Origin: Raillietiella orientalis
Taxonomy: Eukaryota
DNA length: 64,000 nt
Direction of reading: 5' to 3'
NCBI GenBank assembly: GCA_036172245.1
Contig: JAYWIR010000033.1
Coordinates: 682,001 to 746,000, forward strand
This document shows positions 1,743 through 57,096 of the stretch, piece by piece. Position 1 is the stretch's first letter, and every line of letters begins with the position of its first letter. The notes beneath the pieces are model-generated. The model saw nothing but the letters and a program-made list of their open reading frames with translations, searched no databases and was not told the DNA's origin. The translations under genes were made by a program, and so were the position numbers.

Positions 1743-4256
1743 CGCCAAGTGAGTTGGGGAGGGGCCGCGTAACGAAAGGTGCTATCTTCAGGCCTGACGT
1801 TACGCGAGAACCCCCGACATGCGCAGGTTAGCAGAGTATCGAGCGGGAGCCGAGAGGCAATCCTAGGAATCCGGGTCGGACAGCTTGCTGGACGACCAGG
1901 GCCTGGAGCACTCGGTTCCCGCTCAGAAACGCGGGATAGTGAGGAAATTTTACTCCTTTCAGTACGCCAGGGCGCCTCCGGAGCAGGCTGTCTCACGACT
2001 TTTGCTTCTGGTAGGTGCTCCAGCAATCGGAGAAAAGGAACCTCGACGAGCCTTTCACGATCGGCGAGATCATCTCGTCCATCGGATACCTCAAGAGGCG
2101 AAAGGCATCAGGGGAGGACGGCTTTCCTGCGGAGTTTCATCCAACTTTCGCGGCAGAGCTTACTCCCCTGGTACATCAGCTGACCTTGCTGGTCCGCGAA
2201 ACAAATGACGTTCTCACCTCGTTTCGTTCAGCAAAGGTGCGGCTCCTCCCTAAGGGAGGAGACCTTAGGAGCATGAACAACTGGCGTCCCATCACAATAG
2301 TGAATGCGGACGCCAAGTTGCTTGCCAAGCTGTGGGCAGAGTGCTTGGGACGGGTCGCCAACATCTTCATCAGCTCGGAACAGACATATGCTGTTCCCGG
2401 GCGAAGTATGGAGGCGAACCTGTTCCACGCTTCCACATGGTTAGAGCTCCAACAAGGAAGGAGCATAATAAGCAACCGGAATTCCGGTGCGTCCGTCGGT
2501 GGGGGACGGGATGGTCGGGATGGAAGAGGAGCCATCGCGGTCGCAGTCGATTTGCATAAAGCATTCGATTGCGTCGACCAGAATCTCCTTTTGGAGCTTC
2601 TGGAACGCTTGGTCTTCCCGGTCACTTTGCTGGCCTACCTGCACTTCAGCTTGCGCGACGCGCTTATTAATGTTTTTTTTAGTGGATCTACCGTGTACGG
2701 CGTACCGGTTTGACGCGGCATACGGCAGAGGGACAGCCACAGCCCCTTGCTCTTCAGCGCCTATTTGGAATTGCTGCTGAGAGCATACAGGGAGACTCTG
2801 GCACACCTGCCGTGCGATTGTCCCGGTACGCCTGCGGTTTCGGCGTACGCGGACGATCTTCTGCTGCTGCTGCCTATGTCCACCCCGGCCTCGGCGCTCG
2901 AGGACTTCTTCGACCTGCTGAGTCGTGGAACAGGACTGACGGTGAACAGGGCGAAGTCGTCCGTAATGCCAGTCGGAGCGGCGTGGGCAGGGCAGCAGGA
3001 CTGGGTCCGTTTGGGGATCCCCACGGTGAGGTACTTCGAGTACCTTGGTGTGCCGTTGGGGGAGTACTCCCCTGCGGAAGCGTGGTCCGGCTGCCTTCAG
3101 AAGGCTCAGGCGGCGATCGGCCCGTTCCAGGACCGCAGGTTCTTCCTGCATGAACGGGCCGCGGCGTGGAACGCGTTGGCAACCCCCCTCCTTCGCCCTT
3201 TGCTTTTTGTTTGCCCCCCCTCAGCGGAGTCAAAGAAGAGGACGAAGGACCTCCTGAGGATCGCCCTTTGGGGCAGAGGAAGGCCCCGAGTCCGTCTTTC
3301 GGACTTGTGCGCTCCTCGTCGGGATGGTGGTCTGGGCCTCCTGACGTTGAAGCGGCTGGAGCTACAGCTCCAGTTCCGAGTTGTCGCCTTTATGGCAGAA
3401 AATTGGTGCACCTTATGGTGCCTCACTGCAGGTCTCTTCGTCGAGGGGGCCACCGGCAATGCGGGACTCTCGTCCTACTTTGCAGTCCGAAGCCCCATCT
3501 GCCACTGAGGACTTCAACTTCGGAGGGCGGCCAAGCTCGTGAAGAACAACTCGGCGCGGATCCTCGTACGCCCCGCGAACAGTCCTGCCTGGCTGCAGGA
3601 AACCGTGCGGACGTGGGCGATGATTCAGACGCAGAGCCCGCAACACGAGCGAATAGCTGTGTTCGGGCCGCATGCCCACCGCACGCTCCGAGAAATCCTC
3701 GAGGATCCTCGAAGGAGAGCGTGGGCTCAAAGAACCTTCCTTGCTGCGGTACTGCATACCCTACGGGAACATCTGGGCAGCGACGTCGCAGCACAATGGG
3801 ATGTTACTGTCAAGATCGCCAGCAGGGCAAAGAAGATCGGGGATTGGAGTACGGGTTAGCTCACCAACGCTGCGACCCCGAGGACCACCCCAAATGGACT
3901 CTTGCGCTAGGGAGAGCTACTGGATGTTCCAGAGGAACATCTCGAGTGGCCCTCGGTGCTCATGGACTCGCGCACCCTCCCCATGAAGTGGCAACAGTCG
4001 GCACTGCTTTTACACCCGGGTGCGCCGGGGCGTTTATTTCTTTAATAAAAAAAATAAACAAGCAAGTGTAGGGCTATCGCCCCTACAGTGTTCAGAACAT
4101 GTTCTTCTGAACTCGCCGAGTGGGCAGCACTCAGGCTCCCAAGGTCGACTCGGCAGCGGAGGGGGAAGGGACAAATAGAAAAAAGCAAAAAGAAAACACT
4201 ATTTACAAAAGCAGGGAGGGGTTGGGGAAGGGATCACGTTCCGCTGGAGACGTCCT

Positions 4257-7200
4257 CTACATCCTTTGCAGGATGCCGGCAAGTTCAAACTGCATGTGTC
4301 CCAGATGGGTCCATCTGGCTGCCGTCCTCAGGAAGCGCAGGGCGTAGCACAAGATGTCCCTATCGTTCGGTCCACCAGTGGCGGTGCTCCAAGCCGCTAC
4401 AATCCCTCGTAGGCAGCAGAGGGCTGCAAGGGCTGCGGCAGGCGAAAGGGCGTCGCGCACGAAGAGGCGCTTTAAAATGTCTCTGGGAGCGTGCAAGGGT
4501 GCACCAACGGCTGTTGCAAAGCGCAACCACAGGGGCCGGAGGGCAACACAGTCAACGAGCAGGTGCGGGACAGTTTCTCGTTCGCCGCACCTGACACAGT
4601 TTGGGTCCACAACCCCCCTCGTCCAATGAGAGCGGCGGGCGTTGCTGGGGAGTCCCCAGTGCAACACCAGGAACGCCGACTCCTGCCACTTTAGGGGGAG
4701 GGCCCGAGTATTCCTCAGCACTGGGGGCCACTCGAGTTCATCCCGCGGGATGCACAGCAGCTCGCCCCAGCGCAACAGTCCTCTCGGTGGGGAATTTGGG
4801 ATCGCGGCATCAGCAAGCTGACCCGTGGTCCAACCACCTTGTTCTTTCTCAGTGTCCCTGATCGTACACCGGACCTCCCACATGGCCGGCTGGCTACTGC
4901 CCAGATGTTCCTTGAGGTGGGACAGAGCTGTGGCAAGGGAGGTCCTCTCAGCCCACGCACTCAAGGCGGGCTGCACGATGATGTCCTGCAGCGAGCGGCT
5001 CTTATGATAGGAGTGCAGCATTCGCTGCCGCAACTTCAGGCTCGCTTCCTCGATCTGGGCCCACGTGCGAAGGCTTTCCTGCAACCAGGAAGTGCCGTTC
5101 GCGGGCCGGCAGGAGATCCAGGTGTTCTTCCTGGTCAGCTTCGCCACTCGCCGAAGAGCCAGTCCGCAGTGGAACAGGTACCGGCGTTTGCGGCGCACTA
5201 GGAAGGTAGATAGTCCCGCGCAGCCGCCGACTCGCTGAACCAGGCATCGTGCAGGCTCGCACCAGCTGGCGCTCCACAACTTCGCCACTAGGGCGATTGT
5301 TCGGAACTGCAGCTGCAGTTCGAGGCGCTCCAGCGTGAGGAGGCCAAGGCCCCCATCGCGACGAGGGGCGCACAAGTCCTTCCAACGCGCGCGGGGCCTT
5401 CCTCTGCCCCAGATGCCGATTCTGAGGAGGTCCTTTGTACGTGTTCTCACACCACGGGGTGGGGGACGAACAAAAAGCAAGGAGCGAAACAGAAAAGGCC
5501 GGGAAAGGGGCCACGAAAGTGTTCCACAGCACGGCCCGTTCCGGCAAGAAGAACTTGGCATCCAGTAACGGGCCGATCGCTCTCTCGACCTTTTGGAGGC
5601 AGCAAGACCATTGTTCCGCTGGGGAGTAGTCCCCCAACGGCACACCGAGGTACTTAAGGTACCGTACCGTGGGGATCCCCAAGCGAGACCAGTCTAGCTG
5701 CCCTGCCCACGAGGAACCGACTGCAACAACAAACGACTTTGCTCTGTTCACCTCCAGTCCTGTCCCGCGACGCAGCAGCTCGAAAAAGTTTTCGACCGCC
5801 GACGCCGGGGTGGACATGGGGAGCAGCAGCAGAAGATCGTCCGCATACGCCGCCAAGGCCGGTGTACCTGGGCACACGCGCGGCAGGCGACCAAGAGTCT
5901 CCCTGAATGCCCTCAGCACCAACTCGAAGTAGGTGCTGAAGAGCAAGGGGCTCAAGCTATCACCCTGCCGTATCCCGCGGCGCACCGGCACACCGAACAC
6001 GTTCCTTCCCCTGAAAGAAATGTTGGTCAGCGCGTCGCCCCAGCAAGAGCGCAGAAAGGCCAATAAGGAGGCCGGGAAGCCCAAGCGCTCCAGAAGCTCC
6101 AGCAGGAGCTCCTGGTCGACACTGTCGAATGCTTTCCGCAAATCGACAGCGACCGCGAGGGCCCCTTCTCTCTCCCGACTATCCCGCGAACCACCAGCGG
6201 ACGTCTTGCAAATCGGGCTGCCGACCTTGTTCCCTCCATTCATTCTGGTTCTTTGAAGTTCGAACCAGGTGTTCGCGAAGAGCAGGTTGGCGTCCATGCT
6301 TCGCCCGGGAACAGCGTGTGTCTGCTCCGGGCTGATGAAGCTTTCCGCCACCCGCCCCATTCGCTTCGACCATAGCTTCGCAACCAGCTTGGCGTCCGCG
6401 TTCAGTACGGTTATCGGACGCCAATTGCTGAGGTTCCGTAAGTCTCCTCCTTTCGGTAGGAGACGCATACATGCCGATCGGAAGGAGGCGGGAACGTCTC
6501 CTGTCTCCCGGATCAGCAGCGTTAGCCGCTGCACCAGGGGAGCCAGCTCCGCCGCGAAGCACTGAAAAAACTCCGCGGGCAGGCCGTCTTCCCCCGGTGA
6601 CTTCCGCCTTTTGAGCTTCCCGATTGAGGTGATGATTTCACCCATCGTGAAAGGCTCGTCCAGGCGTACTCTCTCTTCTTCCCCGATCGCCGGGGCACCG
6701 TCCGGAAGCAAAAATTGGGAAAATTCCCGGTCCGGAGGCACCCTGGTGTACAGGGAAGAATAATAGCCGTGCACGAGGCTACTCACCTCTGCCGGGGCCG
6801 AGTGCTCTTGGCCTTCGTCGTCCAGCAGGCTGGGCGACCCCGATTGCCAGGCCTGCCGCTCGGCCCCGGCTTTAAATTCCGCCAGTCTTCGGACGTCTGG
6901 TGTTCGGGAGTAACGACGGGCCTGCAGGTAAGCCCTATCGTTCCGAACACCTTCTCCAAATCCTTTCGGGAGACGGTCCATGGGAAACTGTTGGCAGAAC
7001 TCTCGCACCGAGACTTTCAAATCGTCCCAGTCGTCGAGCGTCTGCAGGCTGCAACCTCGCAAGAACGCGCGGAGGTGTTCCGCTGCGCCTGGCTTGGTCA
7101 GCCAGTCCCCCGGTAGACGCCACGCCTGCGCGGGGGGCCCCCTGTCGCGCGGGCGAATGACGAGTTCCACACGGGAGTGGTCGGAGACTGCGGACTGTAT

Positions 7201-7836
7201 CTTACCTCGCCTGCCCACGCGACAGCGCAGGTGATCGTCGAGGAAGACGTGGTCCACGCTCCGTTCCATCCTGGTATCCCCGGCTAACAAGTTGGATGCG
7301 TGCACCGCAGCGCACATCTCGTTAACCGGGGTGGCCTCTGTCCTCGCCGCACCTGATAGCAGGCGAATATTAAAATCGCCGGCTATCAGGTGCGCCGTGC
7401 GCGCGCCTGCCTCCGACAGCCAGTCGCGCTTGAACGCACGGAAAAACGCCGTCCGTGCCACGCGCGCGTGACCGCCGCTCGGCGCGTACACGTTCGTGAC
7501 GACGAGATTGATGGAGTCGGACCACCTGAAGGTGATTTGCCCGACCCGACCTGCCTCATCGAAACGAACTTTCCGCACCGCGCGTTGTAAGGCAGGCTTC
7601 AGAAGGAAAGCGACCCCGCGCGTACGGCGGTGGCGGCATCGCCACATAAGCTGACCACCTGCTATCCGTTCGATCTCCCGCGCATGTTCTGCGGAAATCT
7701 CATGGATCTCCTGCAGCAGCACGAGGTCGAAGGCTTGCAAGGTGGCAGCTATGTCTCGTCTCCTGCCGTCATCGCAAAGCCCGTTGACGTTCCAGCTGGC
7801 GATGCGTATTTGACGGCAGGTGGCGAGTCCCGGCAT
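4257..7836 (-). pseudogene. E3 ORF2 (APE endonuclease-reverse transcriptase-Zn finger), one frameshifting indel near 5490-5510
   Basis: SWNVNG, LQE, NVYAP, GDFN, DH and SDH (APE); WRPI, DLRKAFD, GIRQGDSLSP, YADD, YLG (RT); CVRCGE..HLLVDC. Split between ORFs 5002..7836 and 4257..5645. Confidence 0.92.
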
Positions 7837-9435
7837 TACTGCTGGGAAAGTGATGCTGCGTCTCCCGCCTCACCTAGGGGCGGGACGCCGGCTTTCTCCT
7901 GTGCGGTGGGGGGCGGCTCGACGACCCCCTCCGTCTCCATCGGCTCCGTCTCGACCGATCGTGGGAGTTCAGGACTCGTGTCCATCTCTCCCACGCTCGC
8001 CGCACCCTCGTTTCCGGAGGATTCCCCTTCCTCGGAGGAGACGATCCTCCTCGGGTTACGGATTTTCCTTCCGGTCTTCCTCGGGGGTGCAGATGCGGAT
8101 GGTGCGTGTCCGGTCTCCAGGTCCGAGTCCGAGGTCCCGGTCCCCCTCCTCTCGGCCGGACGTCGAACGGCCTTCTTCCCGACCTTTGCGGGAGGCTGCT
8201 GACTGGCGGCGAGCTCGGCGGCGGCTTTTGCAAAGCCAGCGTCATCGCGGCTCCCCCTCGCCGCAGCCCTCGGACGCTGTTTGCACAGCGACGGGGCTGT
8301 CAGCGTTGTTGCACACGGCAACGTCCTGTTCGCACGGCACTTCGGCGTCTGCAAGGCGCTCCAGTGCGACCGTGCATTTTTTCAGTCCCTGCTTTTTCGC
8401 GGGTTTCGCGGTTTTTGCAGGGACTTTATTTTCATTATTTACGTCCTTTTTTTCTTTCTTTTTCTTTGGACAGATCTTTTGCCAGCCAGGCTCTTCTCCT
8501 TCCACCTCGGTTGCCTGCGTTTCTGCAGACGGGGTGGTCGGGATGCCCTTTTTGGCTGGCTCCGGGTCAACCGTATTTTCAGACGGCGGCCTGGTCTTGC
8601 CAGGCTTCTTGCTCGCGTTCGTGCCGCTCACGGCAGCAGCCGGCGCGCGCGAAGTCTTTTTGGGGCACACTTCTTCCGTGTGCCCGATTGCCTCGCACTT
8701 GCGGCAGGTGATGTTGGGGCAGCGTTTCTTCACGTGCCCCGTACCATCACAAAACGCACAGTATTTGGGTTTCCCCAGATACCAGATGTCGACAGAATCT
8801 CCGTCGACTACTAGTTTATGGGGAACCCCAATGTCCTTATTCACAGTCACACGTGCCGCGGCGAGTCCGCTCAGGAGTCCGTCATAAGTACGGAACCTGT
8901 TGGGCTTCAGCCACAGCGCGTGTACGGTGCCGAATTTGCTGAGTTCAGCCCTAACGGCGCTCGGTGACATCCGCACGGTGATTCCACGGAGGTGGACAAC
9001 TATTGAGTTGTCCACCGGGACAGAGAAGATCTGGCGGCCCTCGACCCTGACGGGGGTTCGCAGCAGTATTTGCGCCAACCATGCTTCTTTGCAGGTCAAC
9101 TCGACATGCTGTCCCCCGCTGCGGATGTAGAGACCCAGCAGATCCTCCTTGTTAACGTTCAAACGGTGGAGCTCCTTCTCGAAGGAGCGCGCCACACGGT
9201 CATCAAACACCCGGCCTACCTTATACAGCAGACTCGGGTTGTAGTCGTAGGCCTTGTAGGCCTGGGCCTCGGCGATGGCCGCTGCAGATGGCGCGGCGAC
9301 CGCGGCGCTGTAGTCCCTCGCCGGCGCGGGGGACGAAGCTTTCGGGGCAGGTGCCCCTATCTCCATGGGTACGGGGGACGTTCGCCCGGCCCCCACCCCA
9401 CATTCACTAGTAGCGGGATCAGGCATTTCTGCCAT
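7836..9435 (-). pseudogene. E3 ORF1 (gag-like, 2 CCHC zinc knuckles), one frameshift near 8245
   Basis: ATG 9435 (MAEMPDPATSE...), CAFCDGTGHVKKRC and CRKCEAIGHTEEVC. Continues in the 7836..8354 frame to TAA at 7836-7838, which overlaps the ORF2 ATG. Confidence 0.85.
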
Positions 9436-10516
9436 CCCCCGACCACTGATGCACCGCACTACACCAATAAAGTCGAGCGAGTCAGGAGCGCGCAGAGAAC
9501 ACGTCTGACCGTCGGCACTGCTGGTGTTGCATTGGGGGCTTCCTTGCAACGCCCGCCGACACCACTGGACGCGGAGGGGTGTCAACCCTAATTGTGTCAG
9601 GTGCGGGGAGAGGGAACACCTCCCCCACCTGTTAGTGGATTGTGTTGCCCTCCGTCCCTTGTGGGAACGCTTTGCCGCAGCCCTGGGGATCCCCGGAGGC
9701 ACCCCCAGAGACGCTTTGCGCCCCCTCTTCGTCCGTGACGCCCTGCCTCCAGCGGCCTCGCTTGCAGCCCTGTGCTGCCTACGCGGGATCGTCGTGGCAT
9801 GGAGCAAAGCGACGGGAGGATCCAGCGACAGGGATGCCAACGTGTATGCCGCCCGTTTCCTCTGGATGGCGACGCGATGGAACTATCTGGAACCACACAC
9901 GCAGCAACAGCTTGCCGGCATCCTCCAGAGGATGACGGACCCTCCCAGCAGACTGTGATCCCTTCCCGCTCCCTCCCTGATTTTTGTTTATTTTTTTTGT
10001 TTTCTTTTTGTTTCGTTCCCCCTCCCCTCTGCTGCCGAGGTCGACCGCGCCAGTCTGATCACCGGTAGCCCGGCAAGCTATATCTTTCCAGGGCGTGGCT
10101 GGACTACTAGTCCGGTCACAGATTGTATAGGTTTATTCGTGAGAATAAACGTCCCGGCGCACCCGGGTTTCAATGGAGATTCCGGAGCGTGACGCCTCTC
10201 AGGTATTCGCGAAGGTGTTCCTTCGCACCTGAGAGTCGCGTCCAGTCCCCCGGCAGACGCCAGTCTCTGGATGGCGGTCCCTTGTCGCGAGGCCGCATCT
10301 CGAAAATTAACCGGGAATGGTCCGACAACGTTGACGCAACCCTCCCCCGTTTGCCGACCCGTGAACACAGGTCAGCGTCGAGGAAGACGTGGTCGATGCT
10401 GCGGACCATTCCCCTCTCACCCGCGAACAAGTTGCGCGCACGCATGGCGGCGCACAACTCGTTCATCGCGTTCACGTGTGTTTCCGGCTCACCTGTTAGC
10501 AGGCGGAGATTGAAAT

Positions 10517-13500
10517 TTATCACCCGGTCACGCCGGGGCGTTTATTAATAATAATAAACTGGTCAGGGACAATGTCCCCAACCAAGAGAACGACAGAGAA
10601 CATAGAAAAATTACCGGCACGCAGGCCTGGTAAACAAACCGCTCGCAGCGTGGGGGGAATGAGGGGAAACAAACGAAAATCAAAAACTGGAGGAAAGGGT
10701 AACGGGTTTTTGGTTAGGCTCCGTACTCACGGGGATTTAAACGATGAGCACCTAGAATATTCCAAAGCCTATGGGGACGCGGGTATAAAAAGAAAATACA
10801 AAATTAGTTTATGGAGGGTAGGGCAATGATCACCGGGTTGGCCGCTGCTGAGGGTGTGTAAACCGGCGGTGTATTGCGGCGAGATTACTTTTTGTCTCCT
10901 ATGTCAAATGAGGCCATCTAGCGGATGCTCCCATGTAGACGGATGCTTTGCTGATTACCTCTTGGTGCTGTCCGTTGATTACCAACGCCTGGCGAACGGA
11001 AACTATCGCGCGTATGCAACCGATGGTTGCAATCCTTCCGCTTAGTGACAGCCCGCTCGGCGTGAAGAATCGTCGCAGCAAGTCTCTTGCGGTGTCCACG
11101 GGATGCATTAGTGCTGTTGTCAGCCTACGCCACAGTCCTTGTAGGCGACCGCAGTCCAGAAGTAGGTGCGGAATCGACTCCGTCGATCCGCACCGAACGC
11201 AGTTCGCAGACGCAAGTCCCCCGGAGCCACGATGCCAACGCTCGTAGCACTGAAAACCCCAGTGAACGAAAAGCAGCACGGCTTGTTACCAAGCAAGGGG
11301 GAGCAGCGAACTGTCAATACACTGTGGAGAGACTACAAGTTCTTCGGGGGTGACAGCAAGTGATTCTGCCCACCGGAGGAGTCCCTTTGCAGTAACACGA
11401 GGAGTGGCGTCGTCCGCCAACTCACTCGTCTTCCAGGCGCCAAGGATTTTGGTTTTTCCCGCTATCGTGCAGGAAACCTCCCACCTCGCCGGTTAGTAAC
11501 TGTGGTTTCTTGCACTGAAGGCAGACAGCGCTGCGGCAAGAGGCGTGGCAGCCAGGGTAGAAAACTTCAACTCGTCCTGCAGTACTTCTTCCAAGGATCG
11601 TGGAAAAAATTGGCGCAGGGGGCGAAGATCTTTAGAGCGTATTCCTTTGAACGCCGCCCAGGATTCAACAGACTCCTGCCGCCAAGCTTCAAAGTTCATT
11701 GGGAGGCAGGAGATCCACGAGTGAGCTTCCAGAAGTGCGGTCAACTGCCGCAATGGAAACCCGAAACCCCGCTTCCTGTATTGAGTGCCCGGCAAAAGCG
11801 AGAGAAATTCTCCGCTGCCGGCGCATCTCCGCAGGAGAGTGCGGGCTGGCACACACAGGGGGAATGTCCATAGCTGGGCACACAGTGCCAGCAGTCGGAA
11901 CTGCACCTGCAGTCCGATTCGCTCCATTGTCAAGATACCCAAACCAGCATCCCGACGCGGAGCTAACAAATCTTTAAGGCGGATCCTGGATCTCGCCGGA
12001 CCCCAGAGAGCGTTCCTGAGCAGGCGTTTAGCCCGCTGTTTTGCCGCATAGGGGGGGTCCAAAACAAAAAACAGGGGACGGAGGAGGGGGGCCACAAGGG
12101 TGTTCCAAATAGTCGCCCGTTCCTGCAAGGTAAACTTGCCGTTAAAGAACGGGCTGATGGCCAACTCTGCTTTCTGAAGACAGTCCGCTCACGCTTCGGC
12201 TGCGCCGAAAGCGCCCAACGGAACGCCAAGGTACTTAAAGTACCCGCCCGTGGGGATCCCCAGGCGGATCCAGTCGGACTGCCCCTCCCACGACGTACCC
12301 ACAGGAACGACCACGCTCTTCTCTCTGTTCACGCTCACGCCAGCTCCCCGACGAATCAGGTCGAAGAAATCCTCGACACTGGACGCCGGGGTGGACATGG
12401 GGTGCAGAAGAAGCAGGTCATCAGCGTAGGCGGCCACGGCAGGCGTTCCCGGGCAGGAGCTTGGCAGGTGAGACAGCGTCAGCCTGTATGCTCTTAGCAC
12501 CAACTCAAAGAAGATGCTGAAGAGCAACGGGCTTAAGCTGTCGCCCTGTCGGATGCCCCTACGAACGGGAATACCATACACGCGGCAGCCGCTGAAAGTA
12601 ATGCAGGTTAGCGCGTGGCGCCAGCACGCGAGCAAATACAGCAGGAGTTGCGCCGGGAACCCAAGGCGTTCCATAAGCTCCAAAAGCAGCTTCTGGTTTA
12701 CGCAGTCGAACGCCTTGTGGAGATCGACCGCGACCGCCAAGGCACCTGGCGTTCCCTCCTGCCGTCGGCGCCTGTTCTTCTTGCCTGTGGCAGTGACTTT
12801 CGCAGCAGCCTGGCTTTGCTGCGCCACAACTTCCTGCAGCTGCATCCATGTACGCGCGAAAAGGATGTTCGCCTCCATGGATCGTCCCGGAACCGCGTAG
12901 GTTTGTTCCGGGCTCACCACAGATTCCGCGATACTTCCTAACCGCGCGACCCACAGCTTGAAAAACAACTTGACATCCGAGTTCACCAAGGTGATCGGAC
13001 GCCAGTTCTTAAGTTGACGCAAGTCTCCGCCTTTCGTCAGGAGACGAACCTTTGCTGAGCGAAAGGAATCCGGGACATTCCCGGATTCACTCATCAGCGT
13101 CGCGAGTTTCAGCATCAAGGGAATGAGCTCCACTGCAAAGCACTGATAAAACTCTGCAGGGAGCCCATCCTCGCCTGGCGCCTTTCGTCTCTTCAGCCCA
13201 GCGATTGCGGACGAAAATTCATCCGCCGTGAAGGGCTCGTTGAGACGTTCGCGTTCCTCCTCGCCGACAACACGAGCATCCTGAGACAGGAGTATCTCAG
13301 AAAGAATATCCTCCGTCGGGGATTCCGCGTACAGAGAGGAGTAGTAGCGTCTCACAATGCGGCGTACTTCGGCTTGGGCCGAACATTCCTGGCCCTTGTC
13401 GTCCAACAGGCATGCTGCTCCGGACTGCCAGACCTGGCGCTCGGCCCTCGCCTTGTACTCTGCGAGACGCCCGACATCGGCGCGTCTCGAAAACGTGCGG

Positions 13501-16423
13501 GCCTGCATAAAGTCTCTTCTGTTGGCCACTCCCTCTCCGAAACCGCGTGGAAGCCGGTGCAAGGGGTATTTGCAGCAGAACTCGCGGACAGATCTTTTGA
13601 GATCGTCCCAGTCCGCAAGTTCTTGAATGGCAAAGCCTCGGAGGTATTTACGTAGATGCTCCGCAGCCTCCGATTGGCTAAGCCAATCCGCCTGCATCCT
13701 CCAGTTCTGCAACGGAGGCCCCCTGCCTGGCGGAAGGATCTTAAACTCCAACCTGTGGTGGTCAGAAAGCCTAGTCAACAATCTTCCTCTCCTACCCACA
13801 CGCGAATGCAGGTTTTCATCGAGGAAAACGTGATCGAGCGATCTTTCCATTCCAGGTTCGCTGACCATCAAGTTGGCGGCGTGCACGGACGCGCACATCT
13901 CGATGGGCAGCGCGCGTTCCCTCGGGCGGCTCCAATCGTCGGAGAGCAGGCGGACGTTGAAGTCCCCAGCGACGAGGTGCGCCACTTGGAAACCGGAGTT
14001 GTTGAGCCAGTGGCTCTGCACCTCACCAAGGAAAGCTACTCTTTCTTCGAGGTAGCGAGAGCCACTCGGCGCGTAGACGTTCGTAACGACGAGATCGATG
14101 GACTCGGACCACTTGATGACAAGCTGGCCTATCCGTCCGTCGTCATCGAAACGAACACTACGCACCGCTTCCGCCATTTTTCCTCTTACGAGGAACGCAA
14201 CGCCGCACGTGTGTGCGCCGCCGCACCGCCAATGTAGCGTTCCGCCTGCGCGCTCCTCGATTTCGGTTGCCTGCTCGTCGGAGATTACGTGAATCTCCTG
14301 CAGGAGCGCGAGGTCGAAGGGGCGCAGGGCGTTGGCTACTAATCGCCTCGTCTCGTCGTTCTGTAGTCCGTTCACGTTCCAACACGTTACGGACAGACGA
14401 CGAGAAGACGCGATTCCCCGCAGTACTGCTGGGAAGGTGGCGGCTTTTTGCTCGCTTTATCCGGCGAGCAGACGGCGAGCAGCACGACTGGCTGGAGGGG
14501 ACGGTCGCCACCGTCCTCTGTCGTGCTGCATGCATGTAATGCCTCCACGCCAGGATGATCCCCGTCGGGTTTCGTGGAGACTTCGCGTGGCTTCGCAGCT
14601 ACAGTTGCCTGGCTGCCTACTTTTGATCGGCGCGCACACGCTTTCGAGCGAGTTGTCCTCGTCTCGGTGATCGGAACGGCATCCATTTCGGAGTCCGACC
14701 GGCGCATGTTCGATCGGGTTTCGGCCTTCCGCGAAGCAGTGACAGGTTCTGCTGGATTGACAGCTGTCCTGTTTTCGTTTTCTGTCACCAGAGCATCGCT
14801 TTTGGTGACGGCTGCTTTCCCGGCGCGCGCGTTTTCAGCGTGCTCACGCGCAGTTGCACGAGGGACCTTTGCTGAAGTCTTCTTTACTTCATTACGGTTC
14901 CTCACTTCGCGTGGCGCCGTAAATGGAGATTCTGCTCCATTGCCATCTTTGAAGCCATCCGCGTCTTTGGACGGGAGCACTTTGGATGGCTTCGACACGC
15001 TCGTCATGGACGCTGCCTTCGGAAGGGCTTTTAATCCCTTCGTTGGCATGGCATCCGCGCCAGTCGAGAGCTTGCTCTCCGATTGCGACGGCGTGAGATT
15101 TTTCTCCGCTTTCGCGGTGTTGGATCGCGACGCGGATTTTTTTTTTTGCTGACTTTCGAAGTCGAAACGGCACAACCCTTCTTACCCGATTTGGGCTTCT
15201 CAGCCACTGCAGGAGGTGAAGGAATGGATCTGACGGTACCGGAAGTGTCCTTACCGCCGTTGTCCATTGGCGTCCCCGCCGGTTGCTCGAACTCCGAGAG
15301 AGCCGGGCGTGCTTGGGAAGGACAGCTATTGCGCCTAGGGGGACTTACCATTGCCCCGGATTCCCCGCACCCTTTCTTTTGCGGCTCCCCTGCCGCGAGA
15401 GGGGGCGCGCAGGGCTTCGCGTGCGAGGTTTCCTGCTGCTTTGGGGCGACATTCCGCCTCGCGTTTTTTCGGAATTTCTGCCGTGGGGTCTCCAGGTTTT
15501 TCGCAGATTTTTTCTTTTTATCCGCGCTTTGTTTTCTAGGATGGAGCTCCGCGGCTGCCTTTTTTCGCAAAAGATCCGGGCAATTTTTCAATTGGTGCCC
15601 GGATAGTTTGCAATAACGGCATTTTCAGAGGGGCATTTATCCAAACAATGCCCCTCCTTCCTGCATTGCTCGCACGTTTTTACTTTGCCCACGAACCACA
15701 GGTGAACGACCGTGTCTTTCACCTGTAGTTTGGTGGGCAGCAGACGGCGGTCCGGCATTGTAAGCTGGACTCCAGCGACTCCGCTGTGTATGGACGGGAA
15801 GTCCTTGAGGTTGCTACGCACCCTCCACAGCGCATGGACCGTGGCGAATTTCGCCAACGCGTTCCGAATATCAATATCGGAGATTTCCTACTCGATGTCG
15901 AAAATCTCCGCCACAAATGAGTCGTCCATGGCGGCCGGGAAGACCTTCTGGCCACGGATCGACAACGGGGTGCGCAGCAAGCGTTGCACAAGTGCAGCGT
16001 CTTTGCAACGCACCTTGAAATAGCCCATGTCTTTTACGGGCATAATGGCGAGAAGGTCCTCCTCCCGCACGCCAACACGGGTCTGTTCATCGTTGAACTG
16101 ATTCCCGTCGCGCGCAGAAAGAAAACCACTCACCTTATATCGGAGAGCAGGTCTATAGCCTTGGGCTACGTATGCCTGCAACTCCGACTCGTCGAGTGGT
16201 TTCCCCTTGACGGCTGCTGTGGCAGCAACGTCAGCAAAACTCCTCTCCATTGGCGAGAAAGACGAAGTGGAGGCGGCCGTAGGTTCCGCGATTGCAGATC
16301 CGGATGCTGTTCCTCCAACTTCAGTAGCTTCAAGTTGGGTCGACATCGTCGTCAAAATGTACGACGCCAAGATGAAGCGGATGAAAGCACGGAGACGAGA
16401 GCGAAGAAAAAACGTCCGCACTC
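10517..16423 (-). mobile_element. E5: full-length (~5.9 kb) decayed L1/Tx1-like element inserted in the APE 'GDFN' motif of E4
   Basis: Near-perfect 9-bp TSD GATTGAAAT (10508-10516) / GATTTAAAT (16424-16432). 5' GAGTGCGGACGTTTT; 3' AATAAACGCCCCGGCGTGACCGGGTGATAA. ORF1 16346->~14423 and ORF2 ~14423->10830 both carry stops or frameshifts. Confidence 0.9.
10830..14423 (-). pseudogene. E5 ORF2 (APE-RT), with in-frame stops (e.g. 12189, 11493, 10899)
   Basis: 728-aa open segment with LQE, GDFN, SDH, DLHKAFD, GIRQGD and YADD. Downstream fragments include CVRCGSTESIPHLLLDC. Confidence 0.88.
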
Positions 16424-16891
16424 GATTTAAATCTCCCGCTATCAGGTGAGCCTTCCGCACGCTCGTGTTCGCCAGCCAGTCGCGCTTCAGGGTTTCAAGC
16501 AGCCTGGTACGGTTGCTGTATCCCTTTTAACCGGTTGGGGCGTACACATTCGTGACGATCAGATCGATCGAGTCCGACCAGCCGAGAGTCAGCTGACCGA
16601 CCGGACCTTCGTCATCGAAGCGCACGCCCTTCACGGCAGCGTGGATGGCCGGCTTCACGAAGAACGCGGCCCCGCAGGTGTTGCGGATGCCGCATTGCCA
16701 GTACAGCCGACCAACCGCGATCGTCTCGATCTCCTGGACGTCTGCCGCGGTGATCACGTGGATCTCCTGCAACAGGGCCAGGTCGAACTCCCGCAGGGTG
16801 TCGGCTGTATCTCGACTGTTACCGTCGTCGCGCAGCCCGTTGACATTCCAGCAGGCGGCGCGAATCCGACGGCGACTGGCGAGCCCAGGTG

Positions 16892-18637: not shown

Positions 18638-18723
18638 TGGACACCGACGATGTACACAAAACACCACACAGAAGAAAAAGCGCTTTCCTACTACTCTTTG
18701 GGGAGTGAAGGAAAAACGTCCTC

Positions 18724-20126: not shown

Positions 20127-20360
20127 ACGCAAGGCGTTCGATTTTCACCCGGATTTCGCCGGGGCGTTTATTGTAAAATAAACATTTACAAAGACGTGCG
20201 GTGGCTGGACCATTGCTCCAGCCACGCACGAAGAAACACAGAGCCTGCCGGGTCACCGGTTGGCAGACCGGAACGGTCCACCACGGCAGCAGGGGGAAGG
20301 GGGAAAAACAAAAAAACAAAAAAAAAAAGAAAAGAAAACTTGGGAGGGTAAGGGAAGGGA

Positions 20361-28805: not shown

Positions 28806-28818
28806 AAAAGGGGAAGAC

Positions 28819-37247: not shown

Positions 37248-37340
37248 CGCTGCCTGATCGACCACCGAACCACACGCCGCTTGCACTGGGGGAGACTTCC
37301 TGGCACGAGGAGCACCGAGAAGACACGTCCACCCTGGAGC

Positions 37341-43948: not shown

Positions 43949-46466
43949 ATGATGGATGATCAGTTACCAAAAGCTTTTGATGTCATTGTTATAGGAACAG
44001 GTAAAGAACGTACTCAACTAATTGTTTTGAAGAAATAAATTCAGGGCTGGTAGAAAGTATAGTAGCAGCTGCTGCAGCAAGAATAGGAAAAACTGTTTTT
44101 CATGTTGATGTGTAAGTTGCCTAAGAATTTTGCAGTTTCGTTTGTGTAGCCTTAATAGTTATCAAGCTATGAATGAGTTTTAAAATATGGAAAATATTTC
44201 CTCAATCTTCTTCTATTTAATTGTATTTGTGGTATAAAGTAATACGAATAAGAGAAGAAATTTTTCCAAGCAAGTAGTACATGTTCAACTGAGGTATAAT
44301 ATAAAATACATGAATCCCTGGCTTCTTGGGACAGGTTAACCAAGGATGTTACAGTTGTTCAAATGTAACCTATTGATTTTCAGAATGTATATTTTGAGGT
44401 TCAAGATAGATTGTTTTTGTGTCTGAATCATTTGGATTCCTTGGAAGTAAATATTTGAACGGATGTGCTTCTGTGTTTCATTGAACTTGAATATCATTAT
44501 GATTAAAAGTAATTCTTAATTTTTCATAAAGCAAGGGTTTCTTCTCTATGCTCGCAAGAATAAGATAACAGAACAGCATTTAATCTTAGTATTTAAAACA
44601 GATTGGTCAAAAAACAAAATAGAGCTTCTAATAAGAACTAAATTGATTTTTGTAATAAATCTTAAAGTTCATATTGATTTAATGATGTGTTTGTTTTGTA
44701 TCTTGATTTTTTCTTCTGGTTATCGGCCTTTCTCATTCGATTCACTCACATTTCTCATGTCATTATCGTGAGTTACACAGTTTTTAAAGAGTTCATGTGC
44801 AAACATGACAAACACAATTTTTATAACATTGCAAAAAACCTGATTTTTAGAAATAAATATTATGGGATGAATTGGACAGCTTTTAATTGGAAAGGAATTC
44901 AGGAGTGGTACTCAGATAACCATCTGCCCTTTCCCAAAGAGAAGAATTCACAATTTGCTCATGAAGAATATGATTATTTACCTCTGAACCCAAACATGGT
45001 TACATTCTGTAAACAGACTTTTTATAAGTATAAGTAAGTAACCACAGATGTAATCTTTGATTGTGACTACCTTTATGTATTAGTGAGTATGAGAAATTTG
45101 ATATGGAAAGTGCTGGCAAGAATCTTATTCTGGATTTAGCACCTAAGGCATGTTGTGTCGCTAATTCTCTAATAATGTAATAGATTAGATTCTGTATTCT
45201 CAAGGACCATTAGTAGAACTTCTTTTGTCTTCAAATGTTTCCAATTACCTGGAGTTTAGAAGTGTAAGTCGTGTGGCAACCCTATTCGAAAATCAAATCA
45301 AAATTGTACCCTGTTCACGTGCTGATGTGTTTGCTTCAGAATCAATCAGCATTGTGGAAAAACGCTTACTTATGAAGGCAGTTACAAATCTTATAGATGA
45401 CACATCCTCTAGTAAGCTTGCAGTCCTCAGTCTCTGTTAAACTTTAAACAATGCTTGATACCTTAGTAAATCCAAGTGATCCATTTACAAACTGGTTGGA
45501 GCATCAGAATCTCACTCCCCTTTTAAAACATTACTTGTGTCATGTTTTGGCTATGGCTGATGAAAGCCTCACGACTGAAGATGCTGCAAACAGAATTAGA
45601 AGCTTTGTAAACAGTGCTGGGCGGTATGGAAATAGTCCTTACCTATATCCCATGTATGGAACTGGAGAAATTGCTCAGGCATTTTGCAGGTATTGAACTA
45701 CAAAGCAATACAAAAAAACATCTTTTGCAGGCTTTGTGCAGTACATGGCGGAATTTATCATTTGAATTTCCCTGTATCAGGGATTATCTGCACTAAGTCT
45801 GCAGAATGTTGTGGTATTGTGGTGGACAATGCTTCCTTTACAAGCAAACATGTTGTTGTTTCTGCTAGCTTAACTCCCACTAACCTGTTTAAAAATCAGC
45901 AGGAATTGGGCATTTCTAGGGCAATTCTGATTACAGATCGCTCAATTTTGTCCACTGAGAAAGAGGAACTAACATTGATACATCTTCCTGGTTCCACTTC
46001 AAATGCTGCTCCAGTAATCATGTTAGAACTGGGAAGCAGTATTGCTGCATGTCCAGCTAATTTATGTATAATATCAGTTCACTTTTACCTCTTATACATG
46101 TAGCTTTTAGATGTGATCCATTTAATAGCGCAACAGCAAAAAACTGCAGAAGAGGACTTCCGTATGGTTATTGACCACTTTTTCCAGTTCAGTCAAGAAA
46201 ATAAGAGCAAACCATGTATTTTCTGGTCGCTTTTCTTTAATCATTCTTCACAAATTAATGAAGAAGTTAATCGGAAAAATTTGTGGTCTTGTCCAGAGCC
46301 AGGGCCAGGCTTACATTTCACATACTATGTACAAAAGGCAATTGTTTTTGTTTTGTTTATTAATTTATTGTGGTTTATGTATGATTTTTAGGCAAAAGAT
46401 ATTTTTTGCAAAATGTACCCTGGTGAGCCATTCTTCCCACATGCACCAGATCCAGGAGATGCTTGA
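43949..46466 (+). CDS. CHM: Rab escort protein (Rab geranylgeranyltransferase component A, GDI/REP family); exons ~43949-44000, 44045-44111, 44851-45033, 45084-45147, 45189-45411, 45467-45689, 45731-46065, 46111-46337, 46392-46466
   Basis: [109 protein letters not shown], C-terminal FFPHAPDP. Splice phases are consistent. Confidence 0.9.
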
Positions 46467-47410: not shown

Positions 47411-47534
47411 GGCACCAAGTAAGTACCTCCAAGGCTTCAGCACAAGTGTAATGTCCACCACAATCTCAAGCTGTACTGGTTAGGTCTCAATCTCGTGTAC
47501 AACCGATGACACGAGAAAACTTCAAAAACATCGC

Positions 47535-52643: not shown

Positions 52644-52664
52644 GTGTGTGTGTGTGTGTGTGTG
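52644..52664. repeat. (GT)n microsatellite followed by a T-run
   Basis: gtgtgtgtgtgtgtgtgtgtg then ttttt. Confidence 0.85.
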
Positions 52665-55374
52665 TTTTTTTTTTATGTTTTTCTGAACAGGAATACTCTG
52701 CGTCTCGAAATCAAAATGATGCTGGTACAATGACGTGGAGCATCCAAGTAGTAACGAAAGTAACGTTAAATTTCCCCAGGGTCGTGGGGATCAACACGGC
52801 GAAGGTAACATAGGCTGAGCAGTAGATCAACAGGGAAGAGAAAAAAAAAAAAAAAAAAAAGTCTCTGTGAGCAAACATCAAAGCGCAGATGCAGATAGAA
52901 CTTTCTCAGTCATCGCAACTGATCGTTTCACACATTTATCAGAGCAGCTGAGAAGCTTCCAGCATGTGCTGGCATTTTTCCAAATCAGTGATTTGGAAAT
53001 GTTCACCACGTTTCTTCCGTAACTTCCACGAGTTCGGGTCAGGCATATTTTTTTGTACACCTCATGTATGCGACTTCCTGCTTCAAGTCTCAGAGGGCAG
53101 GACCGTTCAGATGAATGCGGCAAACACTGCTGCTTTCTGACCAGAATCCTGGCAGTCAATTCGAATTCCCAGCGTGACCTTGTTGACACTGCAGGAGTCT
53201 GCGATTGGAATGCTCTTGTTCGGTAGAGGCACCTCGAGTGAGTGAGTGACCGCTTCAGTTACATTGAAACAACAGCAGATCGAAGAAGTTCCATTTTTGT
53301 GACTTTCTGAAAATGAAAAGCGACCTCATAAGCTCGGAAAAGAGTAAGATTTTGACAGAAGGAAAAAAAGGCTCCAGAGCGAATTTCTTGAAAAGGTTGT
53401 GCGGAAAGTTCACCAACTGGCAGCCAGAAGGCGATCGGTGGATCCAAGAGGCGAGAGTCAGTCGAAACTCGAAAATTTCCCGACTGCAAAACCATCGTCT
53501 TCATTCGGGGAATTCCTCAATGAAAACAACAGTAATCATAATACATCTACTGGTGCCAGAATCAAATTCAGGGTTCGGATGAGACTAGACAGAAATTTGA
53601 TGAGTATAAAAAAAAAAAAAAAAAAAAAGAACTAGAGTCTATGGAACACTGGAGAACCAAAAAAAAATCTATCCAGAGAAGCCTGTAATGGGAACGCAAA
53701 CACGCCATTCACTCTTCGCGTAAATTCCTTCAATAGGATGAAAATGAATTCTATTCCTTTGGGAGCAGCAGCATTCGTGGAGTTTCCCTGTCACGAGCAG
53801 AACGGAAGTGGCGTGACGTGCGCCATGATCCCAATCGCCAAACATGGAGGCCACTCATGGCTGAAAGCCGAATGAAAAGTCTTTCCAGCTCGCGGAGCTC
53901 AATTCCGCTGAGTAAGTGCAATACACGCTGTCACAAAATCGAGAAATCCGGGTCAGGAAGTTTGGCTCCATGACTCACCCTCCGTTGGCTGTTCCCGAAA
54001 AGTGCCGTTCGGCTTGCTTTTTTGAGTTGCCTTTTCTGATGTCATCCAAAAACGTGCAGACGATTTGGAAGTTCATCAACCTAACAAAAACAGCATTCCT
54101 TGCCAATTTCAGAAGGAAAGAATCGTTCTTGCTCCATACGTGAGCGTAACGTCCGAAATGAACCCACTCGATTCCAGACGGACATCCACTGGTCTCGGAG
54201 CTCAGTGTACGCACATCGGATGGCCGAATGGAGTCCGTACTCTTCTGCCGTGGGCCTTGTACTCTCGAGAGCACCACTCTAAACTGGAGCTGGATAATTG
54301 CAGCAGAAGAGCAGCAGTGCTTTCGTTGCTAGGTAACCAGCTTCCAGGCGTTCAAAGTCTGGAGGCAACGAAAGTCTGGTACGTCTGCTTCTCATCCGGC
54401 GTGTCTGTGGAAATGTTGCAAGAAAAAAAAAAAATTAGGTGATTCGTGTCTCTGGAGCCACGTTCTTGCCACCTTCTCAGGCTGTTAGTCGCCACTCTTC
54501 GATCACATTTTCGATCCGTTTGCGTTTTTGCTCCAGCGTCAGAAGAGATTAAAGCATGCAAATCTCTCATAGAGGATAGGCCAGATTATGGTTCCGTCCG
54601 AAACTTTCGGGAATCTCAAAAAGCTTTTTGCTTGCACGAAGATTATGTCCTCAACCTTCAAATCACGCATACACATTTTGGATGATATCCTTTGCATTCT
54701 TTCAAAACAACAGCAACGGCTACTGCGACTTTCATTGCTGCTTTTCATGAGAATGGTTGGTTGCGAGGAGTTTTTTCCCTCGTAATTCAAGTGCTCTTGT
54801 GTTAGAGAAAAACAGGCATCTGTGGTAGCGTCTGCGCTAAGTACCACCCCTTTGTGTCCTTACATTGAAAATTCCGCACTTCCTCGCTGCTGTCCTTAGC
54901 TTCATATGGCGCTTTTCCTGGTATTTCATCCAGCTCATCCCGAGGATTCGGTAATCTGCTGAACTTGGAAAGCATAGAAGACGTCTCAACAAGCTTTCCG
55001 AAGAACGATGCCAATCTGTCGTTCTAGAAAACGCCTCTCAAACATTTCTTTCTTCCTCTGCACCCTGTGCCAGGAAGAAACCCATGGAGAACTCTGGATA
55101 CAGCATGAACGCTTCCTGTCGCGTCCATGAGCAGTTCACAAAGAAGCTGGGAAAACCGCTGTTAGCACACAACTCCTATAGCCGGATGGACCAAGTCGCT
55201 ATTGATGAATTTCGGACGAGCAAAAAACCCCATTCTCCACGGCCTGCTCAATTGTAGGTTGGGCCCTCGAAAAACAGCACTCGTTAGACTAAACGGCACA
55301 TCGGCACTCGGCATTTCTTGACACCCTCATACGCCCTCACTGTCCACTGCTGCTGTCTCGGTTGTGGTGCCTCA

Positions 55375-57096
55375 CCCCATACCGAAAGGCGAGGACCCTC
55401 AACGTCCGTCGCCTGGCCGAGTATCGACCCGGGGTCGAGCAACAAGCCTGGCAATCCGGGCCGCCCACCTTGCTGGACGACCAGGGTCGGGAACACTCGG
55501 CTCCGGCCGCGATACGCCACCTCGTGAAGCGGTTCTACTCCTCCCTGCTCCTGGCCAGGGCTCCCCCGGAACGGGACGTCTCGAGACGCCTGCTCCCGGA
55601 CGGTGCCCCGGTCATAGGGGAGGATGAACGGGAAAGCCTGGGCGAGCCCTTCTCGATCGGTGAGATTATCACCGCGATAGGGAGGCTCAAGAGGCGGAAA
55701 GCACCAGGGGAGGACGGCCTGCCAGAGTACTTCTTCCGATGATTCGCCGCAGAGCTGGCACCCCTGTTGCTTCAGTTGATAAGGCTGATCCGAGACGAAG
55801 GCGATGTTCCCGCCTCGTTTCGGTTAGCGAGAATGAGGCTCCCTTCAAGGGGGGAGACCTCAGGTAGCTGAACAACTGCCGTCCAATCACGATAGTCAAT
55901 AAGGATGCCAAGTTGGTTGCGGTGCTGTGGGCTGCGCGTTTGGGGCAGGTGGCCGACTCCATAATTAGTCCGGAGCAGACTTACGTTGCTCCCGGGCAAA
56001 GTATGGAGGCCAACCTGTTCCTGGCCAGCACATGGTTCCACCTGCAGCTGGAACATGTGACCAAAAAGGAAAGAAGAGTCGGCAATTCGAACTCAAGGGC
56101 GCCTGGTGGGCAGGGAGGGGACAGCCGGGCGGGCAAGGGAGCCCTGGCGGTCGCAGTTGATCTGCATAAAGCGTTCGACTGCGTGGACCAGGAGCTTCTG
56201 GATCTCCTGGATCGCATGGGGTTCCCGACCGCCTTAACGGCTTACCTGCTGGAGCGCCTCGATAACAAACGTCTGTTTTAGGGGACAACACGTGTACGGC
56301 GTGCCGGTGCGGCGAGGGATCAGACAGGGCAATAGCCTGAGCCCCCTACTCTTTAACACCTGCTTGGAGTTGGTGCTGAGAGCGTACAGGGCGACTTTGG
56401 CTACCTTGCCGAGCTCGTGCCCGGGTACGCCCGCAAGCGGAGTGGGCACCTGGTTTCCGAGGGAAGTTGCATCCCCAGACTGCCAAAGGCGCAGGGGCGA
56501 CTGAATCATCCCCTCACCTCTTGATGGGCTGCGGTGGCCTCCGGCAATTTTTGTGGAGGCTGGCTTCGAAACACTCGCATCCCGAGGACGCTGCTAAGGA
56601 ACTGCTGAGGCGATTCTTCGCGAGAGGTGACTCCACCTCTCGCGAAGACAGGTCACTTGTATCGCAGCCGTCTACATGAGGACGGCTGCCAGGTGGCCTC
56701 GTGGCCTCACCCAGAACAAGAAATCAAGGATTGCCGACATCTAATATGTCGGTTTTAGAAGGAAAGAACGGGCATCACCAGTGACCTTTGTCCTCATCCT
56801 CCCTTAATTTTTTTTTTCTTTGTTCATATATTTTTTCAGTTTACTTCCTCATAGTCGTTCCGGGCCTTTCCCAGTTTCCCAATTTCCGAGACACACCAAA
56901 GACCCTTGTCCCCACACTCCTTTTAGTTATTTATTTCTTCCCTCCTTCCTCGTGCTCCAAACCTTCCTAAACCTCGACCTGAGTATCGGTGGATCGTCAA
57001 ATGACCTTTTGTTTTTTCGTTTTTAATTCGGAAACTGTGTCCCAAACTTGTTTATTTTTCTTATGAAAACAAACACTCGGCGTCACCGGATGAAAA
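55375..57096 (+). mobile_element. E12: 5'-truncated, internally deleted copy of the same L1/Tx1-like group outside the main nest
   Basis: EQQAWQSG..LLDDQG, RLKRRKAPGEDG, DLHKAFDCVDQ, GIRQG.SLSP, then a jump at ~56435 to the Zn-finger region. Degenerate 3' end AACAAACACTCGGCGTCACCGGATGAAAA (57068-57096). Confidence 0.85.

Follow-up and report, generated by a model that had tools for sequence, protein, structure and literature searches.

Mammalian L1 elements read poly(A) and hence also copy Alu and mRNAs, while most other long interspersed nuclear elements (LINEs) read a 3' stem-loop; a poly(A) tail behind AATAAA is a usual trait of the L1 clade, though not a defining one. How L1-type enzymes choose their template is debated, and L1-like families that have an AAUAAA, a conserved, structured end and a near-absent tail would represent a natural test case. 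Here, we describe such families in a stretch of 64,000 nucleotides (nt) from Raillietiella orientalis (contig JAYWIR010000033.1, positions 682,001 to 746,000; "the window" in the following), in which all eight LINE 3' ends carry AATAAAC or a variant of it, a GC hairpin and then 0-4 A's. With moderate confidence, we interpret this end as part of a "stringent-type" 3' handle, which would fix the start of reverse transcription and whose AAUAAA would probably also act as a polyadenylation signal. The whole analysis covers these eight copies from one window.

In the L2 clade, the zebrafish open reading frame 2 (ORF2) protein recognizes the stem of the 3' stem-loop generally and the loop specifically, according to the accessible part of the source (PMC4176376). 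With regard to the L1 clade, an earlier note on this DNA had set typical poly(A) ends against stem-loop recognition in other clades, which is incomplete, since L1-clade 3' hairpins with compensatory changes are already known from a monocot lineage and from Chlamydomonas L1-1_CR, both of which end in poly(A) as far as the accessible sections go (PMC3747384). The same sections give, for the monocot "1a" lineage, a divergence of 0.144 over the last 45 nt versus 0.570 overall (PMC3747384). Vertebrate L1s are described, in the portion available, as ending "in all species" with AATAAA and poly(A) and as having C- and T-rich tracts in the 3' untranslated region (UTR) (PMC5381506). In human L1 ORF2p, an RNA hairpin upstream of the initiation region sits on the C-terminal segment and helps to set the start of the cDNA, and about 15 nt of single-stranded poly(A), which is contacted adenine-specifically, are required between this hairpin and the active site (PMC10830416, accessible in part). 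A stem-loop has also been proposed for the 3' end of human L1 and Alu (PMC5135761, likewise accessible in part). The combination of an L1-like ORF2, an AAUAAA within a helix, a GC hairpin after this signal and a near-absent A tail was not found in the open-access papers searched, which does not prove its absence.

Bases 1-40,700 of the window are a nest of retrotransposons without long terminal repeats (non-LTR retrotransposons) with 55-61% GC, which was resolved by self-comparison, tblastn and reading of the junctions. E2 (1768-4007 plus 9522-10168, plus strand) is interrupted by E3 (4008-9510, minus strand), E5 (10517-16424, minus) is nested in E6 (minus), and E7 (20142-23789 plus 35420-37355, minus) is interrupted by E8 (23790-25139 plus 30822-35407, plus), which is itself interrupted by Eint (25153-30808, minus). 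The 5'-truncated E10 is located at about 37345-39443 (plus), and the likewise 5'-truncated, decayed E12 at about 55371-57096 (plus) in the AT-richer host DNA that adjoins the nest (40700-64000, 33-52% GC). The earlier note had reported the AATAAA-hairpin motif at the ends of E2, E3, E5, E7, E8 and E10, with a degenerate version in E12, and the sites could be confirmed: E3, 4014-4038 (minus); E2, 10144-10168 (plus); E5, 10522-10546 (minus); E7, 20147-20172 (minus); E8, 35378-35402 (plus); E10, 39414-39438 (plus); and E12, where the degenerate motif ...AACAAACACTCGGCGTCACCGGATGAAAA ends at 57096 (plus). The pattern CCGG-N4-8-CCGGGT occurs six times in the window versus 0.72 expected matches, and AATAAACGCCCCGG with up to two mismatches six times versus 0.31 expected; none of 100 shuffles reached six matches in either case. 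The eighth 3' end, which was absent from the earlier list, is that of Eint and reads AAATAAAC-TTAC-CCCACCCCTTGTGGG-ACTTGGGG-AAA, so that the eight ends consist of six canonical ones, a decayed one (E12) and one from a distant family with a different hairpin (Eint). Every motif copy within the window is joined to a LINE body. A single motif match among metagenome contigs (L001) was attributed to chance, as it lies inside a long open reading frame of a GC-rich contig without an AT-rich UTR or an A run. The histone-type 3' stem-loop was dropped as a candidate, since its stem and loop sizes differ from those found here and Rfam gave no match over the whole window at gathering thresholds.

Target-site duplications (TSDs) bracket the motif in four of the eight copies, namely E3 (GTCGGCACTGC, 11/11, 3997-4007 and 9511-9521), Eint (CCGACTCGGCAGG, a perfect 13/13, 25140-25152 and 30809-30821), E8 (ATCT(CT)TGCGCT, 10/12 with a 2-bp indel, 23780-23789 and 35408-35419) and E5 (ATTGAAAT / ATTTAAAT, 7/8, 10509-10516 and 16425-16432); reading of the junctions did not establish a TSD for E2, E7, E10 and E12. 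With the TSDs enclosing it, the motif is part of the element rather than of the target, and a target-site motif was therefore rejected. It could still act at the DNA level, as a preferred landing site for later insertions or as an antisense signal, and two junctions indeed put the 5' side of another element right after the A run, while the reverse complement of the upstream GTTTATT is AATAAAC, i.e. a second copy in antisense. However, the four mapped insertions (E3, E5, E8 and Eint) are located in coding regions of other copies and not at termini, and a DNA-level role offers no reason for the covariation of the upstream hairpin described below, so that we consider it very improbable.

The tails consist of AAAA in E7, E10 and E12, of AAAA after GT in E3, of AAA in Eint, of GATAA(A) in E5 and of GAGAA(A) in E8, while E2 has no recognizable A tail (GGGT followed by TTCAATGG), its boundary being uncertain by a few bases. 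The earlier statement that two to four A's precede the TSD is thus shown for half of the copies, namely the four with a TSD. From the open state of both ORF1 (29056-30771) and ORF2 (25287-28970) and from the perfect 13-bp TSD we conclude that Eint is young, and because it ends in AAA, the short tails are not due to decay. Indeed, the description of ends with essentially no poly(A) was borne out, as the one intact copy available does not carry the long poly(A) that would be expected in young copies if the tails had been shortened later, and E3 has a perfect 11-bp TSD, yet a tail of just AAAA. At none of the four mapped junctions is the end of the DNA primer (...CACTGC, ...GGCAGG, ...TGAAAT and ...GAGAT) T-rich, and the first strand thus did not need poly(A) annealing, which is in keeping with an initiation guided by structure and not by annealing to poly(A).

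Two head-to-tail junctions without a TSD were observed. At 20141/20142, a partial copy (18730-20141), which is 94% identical to the 5' 1.4 kb of E7 itself, has its exact 5' end right next to the A run of E7, and at 39443/39444 the A run of E10 abuts E11, which has the same orientation and is 5'-truncated by about 100 nt. These junctions represent either insertions at termini or a jump of the reverse transcriptase (RT) between LINE RNAs, in which case the acceptor RNA supplied just four A's.

The 20 non-loop positions of the terminal motif show a mean pairwise identity of 95% (minimum 85%), compared to 61% over the last 300 nt of ORF2 and 53% over the rest of the 3' UTR; the terminus is thus conserved well above the rest of the element (95% vs 53-61%), as in stringent-type LINEs. 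Directly upstream of the terminal block identity drops to 42-72%, and the 3' UTR is barely alignable between the groups E2/E3/E7/E10 and E5/E8/E12. Four loop sequences occur, CGCAC (E2, E3), CGTGA (E5, E8), CGAAAT (E7) and CTTGG (E10), in agreement with the earlier claim of a conserved stem with a varying loop across families with diverged ORF1s, whose identity between families is 25-71%. In a conservation scan, in which the last 2,090 nt of five copies were aligned (2,279 columns) and divided into non-overlapping 20-nt windows, the terminal one ranks tenth even with its variable loop included; the rest of the top twelve are coding blocks of the RT domain, which the terminus thus matches in conservation, and none of these falls within the final 1,600 or so columns.

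Such a block could also lack a function of its own and simply reflect common descent together with a swapping of 3' ends among families expressed at the same time, through template switching or recombination, and recent homogenization. The head-to-tail junctions without a TSD (E7 with the 94%-identical partial copy, E10 with E11) would be consistent with an RT that jumps between LINE RNAs, and the sample comprises only about three independent lineages, since the copies within E2/E3/E7/E10 and within E5/E8/E12 share ancestry. However, the neighbouring UTR should then have travelled along, yet it is diverged directly upstream of the block, the loops differ by family, and the upstream hairpin stays paired through eight double-sided changes. 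In addition, Eint has the same architecture with a different sequence. Its ORF2 is about 29-30% identical to the others, yet it is their sister lineage (SH-aLRT 99), from which we conclude that the architecture outlived deep divergence. Altogether, we regard an exchange of 3' ends without own function as unlikely.

Single-sequence folds gave three adjacent helices, SL1, SL2 and SL3, within the last 70-95 nt. SL1, a hairpin with 7-14 bp, varies in sequence from family to family, and SL3 is the CCCGG/CCGGG hairpin of the earlier note. In SL2, the AAUAAAC pairs with a conserved GUUUAUU located 4-40 nt upstream in five of the six canonical copies, and the helix is 8 bp long in E2, 12 bp in E3, 8 bp in E5, 7 bp in E7 and 16 bp in E8; its eighth pair is C-G, U-A, A-U or U-G, depending on the family. 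The AATAAA had previously been described as fused to the GC hairpin, but this is too simple, as AATAAAC represents the 3' strand of this second helix with the upstream GTTTATT.

The individual modules are arranged as follows. In E2 (10095-10168, plus), SL1 (10095-10119, 11 bp) is followed by SL2 (10131-10150, 8 bp) and SL3 (10153-10167). The module of E3 (4008-4087, minus) consists of SL1 (4067-4087), the 12-bp SL2 (4032-4059) and SL3 (CCCGG-CGCAC-CCGGG, 4015-4029), and ends with TGT and AAAA (4008-4011). SL1 (11 bp) of E5 at 10560-10584 abuts the 8-bp SL2 (10540-10559), with SL3 (10523-10537) and TGATAA completing the module (10517-10584, minus), and in E8 (35312-35407, plus) the 10-bp SL1 (35312-35336) likewise abuts SL2, which has 16 bp with an internal loop, before SL3 (35387-35401) and TGAGAA. 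E7 (20142-20230, minus) has SL1 at 20195-20230, a 7-bp SL2 (GTTTATT/AATAAAC), which competes with an alternative 7-bp hairpin at 20171-20191, SL3 with a 6-nt loop (20148-20163) and TG plus AAAA (20142-20145). The module of E10 (39372-39443, plus) is a variant with a weak SL1 (GGGG/CCCC) and AGTAAAC in place of AATAAAC; it has no GTTTATT partner but a different hairpin (ACTGAAA/TTTCAGT, 39400-39416), its SL3 is TCCGG-CTTGG-CCGGG with one U-G wobble, and it ends with TG and AAAA (39440-39443). In the decayed E12 (57025-57096, plus), GTTTATT...AACAAAC leaves an A.C mismatch in SL2, followed by CTCGG-CGTCA-CCGGA and TG plus AAAA (57093-57096). The 3' UTR of Eint (25153-25286, minus) retains an SL2-type closing helix (GUUUGU/AUAAAC, with one G-U wobble) around a 13-bp inner hairpin; after this helix follows the hairpin CCCAC-CCCTT-GTGGG (25164-25178) or, alternatively, CCCCA...TGGGG, and the element ends with AAA (25153-25155).

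An unanchored alignment with MAFFT and RNAalifold recovered just SL3 and 3 bp of SL1, and the structural alignments were therefore anchored on the hairpins. In the resulting ungapped 25-column alignment of seven copies, 80% of the SL1 cells pair versus 58% in shuffles (0 of 500 reached this value), eight of ten pairs change on both sides, and the covariation score is 0.63, compared to at most 0.15 in six slid registers. The alignment retains sequence anchors of its own (G7, C18 and C19 are invariant), and in the comparison of E5 with E8 alone both partners differ in two pairs and one partner in four, with no pair broken. Stems of at least 9 bp were found in the SL1 region of four of the six canonical copies, which are not independent, versus 7.9% of 713 element-body windows of 70 nt. 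The covariation signal is thus found in the upstream SL1, while none was significant in SL3.

Several observations weigh against a structural module. The SL1 alignment is centred on the hairpin of each copy, which favours structure, and both SL2 strands are invariant over 7 bp, so that their conservation may serve sequence functions other than pairing. For SL3, 43 of 500 shuffles reached the covariation score obtained with the CCCAC/GUGGG of Eint added; the double changes (two of five pairs) come from Eint alone, in a register picked by structure, and no both-sided change occurs among the canonical copies. The conservation of SL3 is at the sequence level. In favour of the hairpin, its changes in E10 and E12 preserve wobble pairs, and Eint has CCCAC/GUGGG at the corresponding place. 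As to E10 and E12, the former has no SL2 partner and a terminal z of -0.56, and the latter a z of +0.59. Short isolated terminal segments fold with z values of just -0.7 to -1.75; terminal segments of 84-113 nt (136 nt for Eint) reach -2.9 to -5.0 in six of the eight copies, but so do 22% of 198 control windows from element bodies (z ≤ -2.9). Folding stability alone is therefore no evidence for the module, and we rejected it as an argument, since the terminal z values are unexceptional compared to body windows and the raw energies are average; the element bodies fold better than shuffles throughout (mean z -1.3 to -1.7).

From the fixed end, the conserved module and the shared stem with a family-specific loop, which point to stringent-type recognition, we favour the following mechanism. 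The module would consist, in this order, of the family-specific SL1, SL2 (AAUAAAC/GUUUAUU), two nucleotides, SL3 with a 5-bp GC stem and a family-specific loop of 5-6 nt, and UG with 2-4 A's. The ORF2 protein would grip its own RNA through this module as a cis handle, and target-primed reverse transcription would always set in at the same short distance of a few nucleotides beyond SL3. The module would thereby replace the recognition of a poly(A) tract of the mammalian L1 type, and new copies would carry only 0-4 A's, whatever the length of the RNA tail. The AAUAAA would probably double as a polyadenylation signal, by which the RNA would be cut just past SL3; we think so because the hexamer is located 19-28 nt before the last base of the element and is kept in E10 (as AGUAAA) even without a pairing partner. 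The earlier proposal of a shared stem-loop signal is thus supported by its position inside the TSDs, its conservation and the tails that are not due to decay, but not by covariation of SL3, and both RT recognition and 3' processing are functions that we infer. The loop tracks the family, and by analogy to zebrafish L2, in which the loop is the specificity determinant (PMC4176376, in the part accessible), the suggested cross-mobilization between families should be treated with caution.

Alternatively, the module might mainly be a 3'-end processing device, in which AAUAAA is the signal and the hairpins position or regulate cleavage just past SL3, sparing transcription of flanking DNA, while an ordinary RT begins with the initial A's of the tail, or the RNA has only a short oligo(A). 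This alternative deserves serious consideration, although we regard it as clearly less probable than the handle. The distance from the hexamer to the last base is constant, the canonical copies having 24-25 nt and Eint 31 nt, which would correspond to cleavage 19-28 nt after the hexamer and thus to the usual range of eukaryotic poly(A) sites. The sole hexamer variant in a non-decayed copy, the AGUAAA of E10, is a common functional variant of the polyadenylation signal, and its retention without a pairing partner indicates that the sequence, and not pairing alone, is constrained. In addition, vertebrate L1s all end with AATAAA and poly(A) and have C-/T-rich 3' UTR tracts as found here, according to the available text (PMC5381506). 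However, a processing device leaves the tails of 0-4 A's in eight of eight copies unexplained, since priming within poly(A) should give longer and more variable runs, and the junctions lack T-rich primer ends. The internal sense AATAAA hexamers (one in E3, one in E8 and two in Eint) give no clear sign of avoidance, most copies hold the terminal hexamer within a helix, and the covarying SL1 would likewise remain without explanation.

A more far-reaching version of the handle, which we consider rather doubtful, is that a deep, undescribed L1-like lineage swapped recognition of the poly(A) tract for a three-helix module with the hexamer in a helix, which would switch the RNA between two fates. 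With the helix open, the RNA would be cleaved and polyadenylated, and with the helix closed, ORF2p would capture it and begin the copy at a fixed start. If this were true, the elements would represent a natural intermediate between stringent and relaxed LINEs and would be direct evidence for initiation by hairpin guidance as the ancestral state of the L1 group.

The affiliation of the elements with the L1 group is based on ORF2. The nearest database proteins are 26-27% identical and have the architecture APE, RT and zf-RVT, which is shared by the Atlas neighbours of ORF2, and the best match among solved structures is human L1 ORF2p (E = 4e-53, vs 1e-26 for R2). In a tree of 41 rows, which were chosen by similarity to the query and comprise no named reference set of LINE clades, the four ORF2s of the window form a clade (SH-aLRT 99), in which Eint branches as the sister of the canonical ones. 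A split (100) encloses this clade together with all eight database matches that bear zf-RVT, one frog protein and one grass protein, while 12 of the 13 PF14529-bearing rows are located on the opposite side. Judged from these sequence comparisons, we provisionally place the elements on the L1-like (L1/Tx1) side of the non-LTR retrotransposons, where they would represent a deep lineage of their own. Regarding the 3' trait of the L1 group, AATAAA is present, but it is followed by no poly(A) tail in any of the eight copies.

The elements resemble the L2 clade (eel UnaL2, zebrafish ZfL2-1 and ZfL2-2) in the conserved stem-loop located within a few nucleotides of the 3' terminus and in the lack of a long poly(A). 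As in the ZfL2 elements, a stem is shared while the loop is specific for the family (PMC4176376, accessible portion), with binding by the protein being a prediction in the case of the window. In contrast to the L2 clade, the ORF2s are on the L1-like side and not with the PF14529-bearing group, the ends carry 0-4 A's instead of short tandem repeats such as (TGTAA)n (PMC3747384, accessible sections), and the module has three helices and contains AAUAAA. With the monocot "1a" lineage (ZmSINE2/3) and Chlamydomonas L1-1_CR (SINEX-3_CR), the elements share an L1-type ORF2 and a 3' end that is conserved far better than the rest (PMC3747384). However, those elements have, as far as these sections show, poly(A) repeats and partners among the short interspersed nuclear elements (SINEs), whereas the window has its short tails, the sequences are unrelated, and the ORF2s of the window, to which no database protein exceeds about 27% identity, would constitute a deep lineage apart. 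Like the L1s of mammals, lizard, frog and zebrafish, they have two ORFs, an ORF2 with APE, RT and, in two copies, a candidate C-terminal Cys-rich region, C-/T-rich 3' UTR tracts and a terminal AATAAA (PMC5381506, portion available). Unlike in vertebrate L1s, a GC hairpin is located between the signal and the end, there is no tail, ORF1 carries a CCHC knuckle, and GC content is 55-61% versus 34-48%.

By analogy, the seat of the hairpin on human ORF2p offers a plausible mechanism by which an L1-type enzyme could read SL3 (PMC10830416, accessible part). In contrast to the human complex, the copies in the window retain 2-7 nt after SL3, so that the geometry or the start point would have to differ. 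The elements therefore bear on the role of this hairpin (PMC10830416) as well as on the suggestion that the L1 clade was stringent in its recognition ancestrally (PMC3747384), both as set out in the accessible text. Such elements should yield few processed pseudogenes and little 3' transduction, and their exact termini ease the annotation and dating of insertions.

Between families of the nest, nucleotide identity is 64-79% (self-comparison), and the ORF2 proteins of the main families are 55-67% identical (tblastn, which also gave the values for Eint). PF03372 (APE endonuclease) and PF00078 (RT) were matched in four ORF2 frames (E 1e-11 to 3e-33). Matches to zf-RVT in two copies (E = 6e-5 and 3e-4; 24 and 21.8 bits) are below the Pfam gathering threshold of 27.5, the C-terminus of Eint gave no zf-RVT match, and no RNase H match was seen in the profile search of the ORFs of the window. 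Almost all insertions within the window hit other LINE copies, and E12, the sole copy in host DNA, is decayed and less GC-rich. The host DNA contains an exon of a Rab-escort/GDI gene (45636-46103) and, at 58542-59000 (plus), a frame with a weak match to the N-terminal DNA-binding domain of CENP-B (E = 0.002, short of the cut-off), which may be a remnant of a pogo/Tigger-type transposase.

When contigs of three DNA runs were compared, 627 contigs of run X1 were placed on 20101-40000, of which 562 are less than 99% alike, from which we conclude that many paralogous copies exist. The contig rows listed show no loose ends or insertions at the 3' termini and are uninformative on the tails of other copies. 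On the body of Eint (25413-30060), the pile-up of X1 contigs is 2-4 times deeper (summed word depth 39-84 vs 7-36 for other elements), which would point to more numerous or younger copies of the Eint family in the genome of X1, depth here not being a copy number.

Besides the terminal module, a hairpin of 11-13 bp was observed inside the APE-coding region at the G-D-F/L-N motif, with both strands changing between families. It is located at about 7335-7385 in E3 (minus; CACCTGATAGC/GCTATCAGGTG), at about 23450-23500 in E7 (minus; CCCATCTGGTT/AACCAGATGGG) and at 16425-16440 and 10490-10516 in E6 (minus; CTCACCTGATAGC/GCTAACAGGTGAG), and may be an RNA structure with a function within ORF2. The insertion point of E5 is exactly the loop of the E6 hairpin (ATTTAAAT).

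Finally, the full-length copies, but not Eint, have in common the motif (A/G)GACGT(G)TTTT 5-35 nt from the 5' end, which we take to resemble the downstream promoter element of the internal promoters of insect LINEs. It was found in E3 (about 9495-9510), E5 (about 16405-16424), E8 (23790-23815) and E7 (37320-37355), and further in E7b (20105-20141), E1 (about 1730-1745) and E6 (about 18700-18715).

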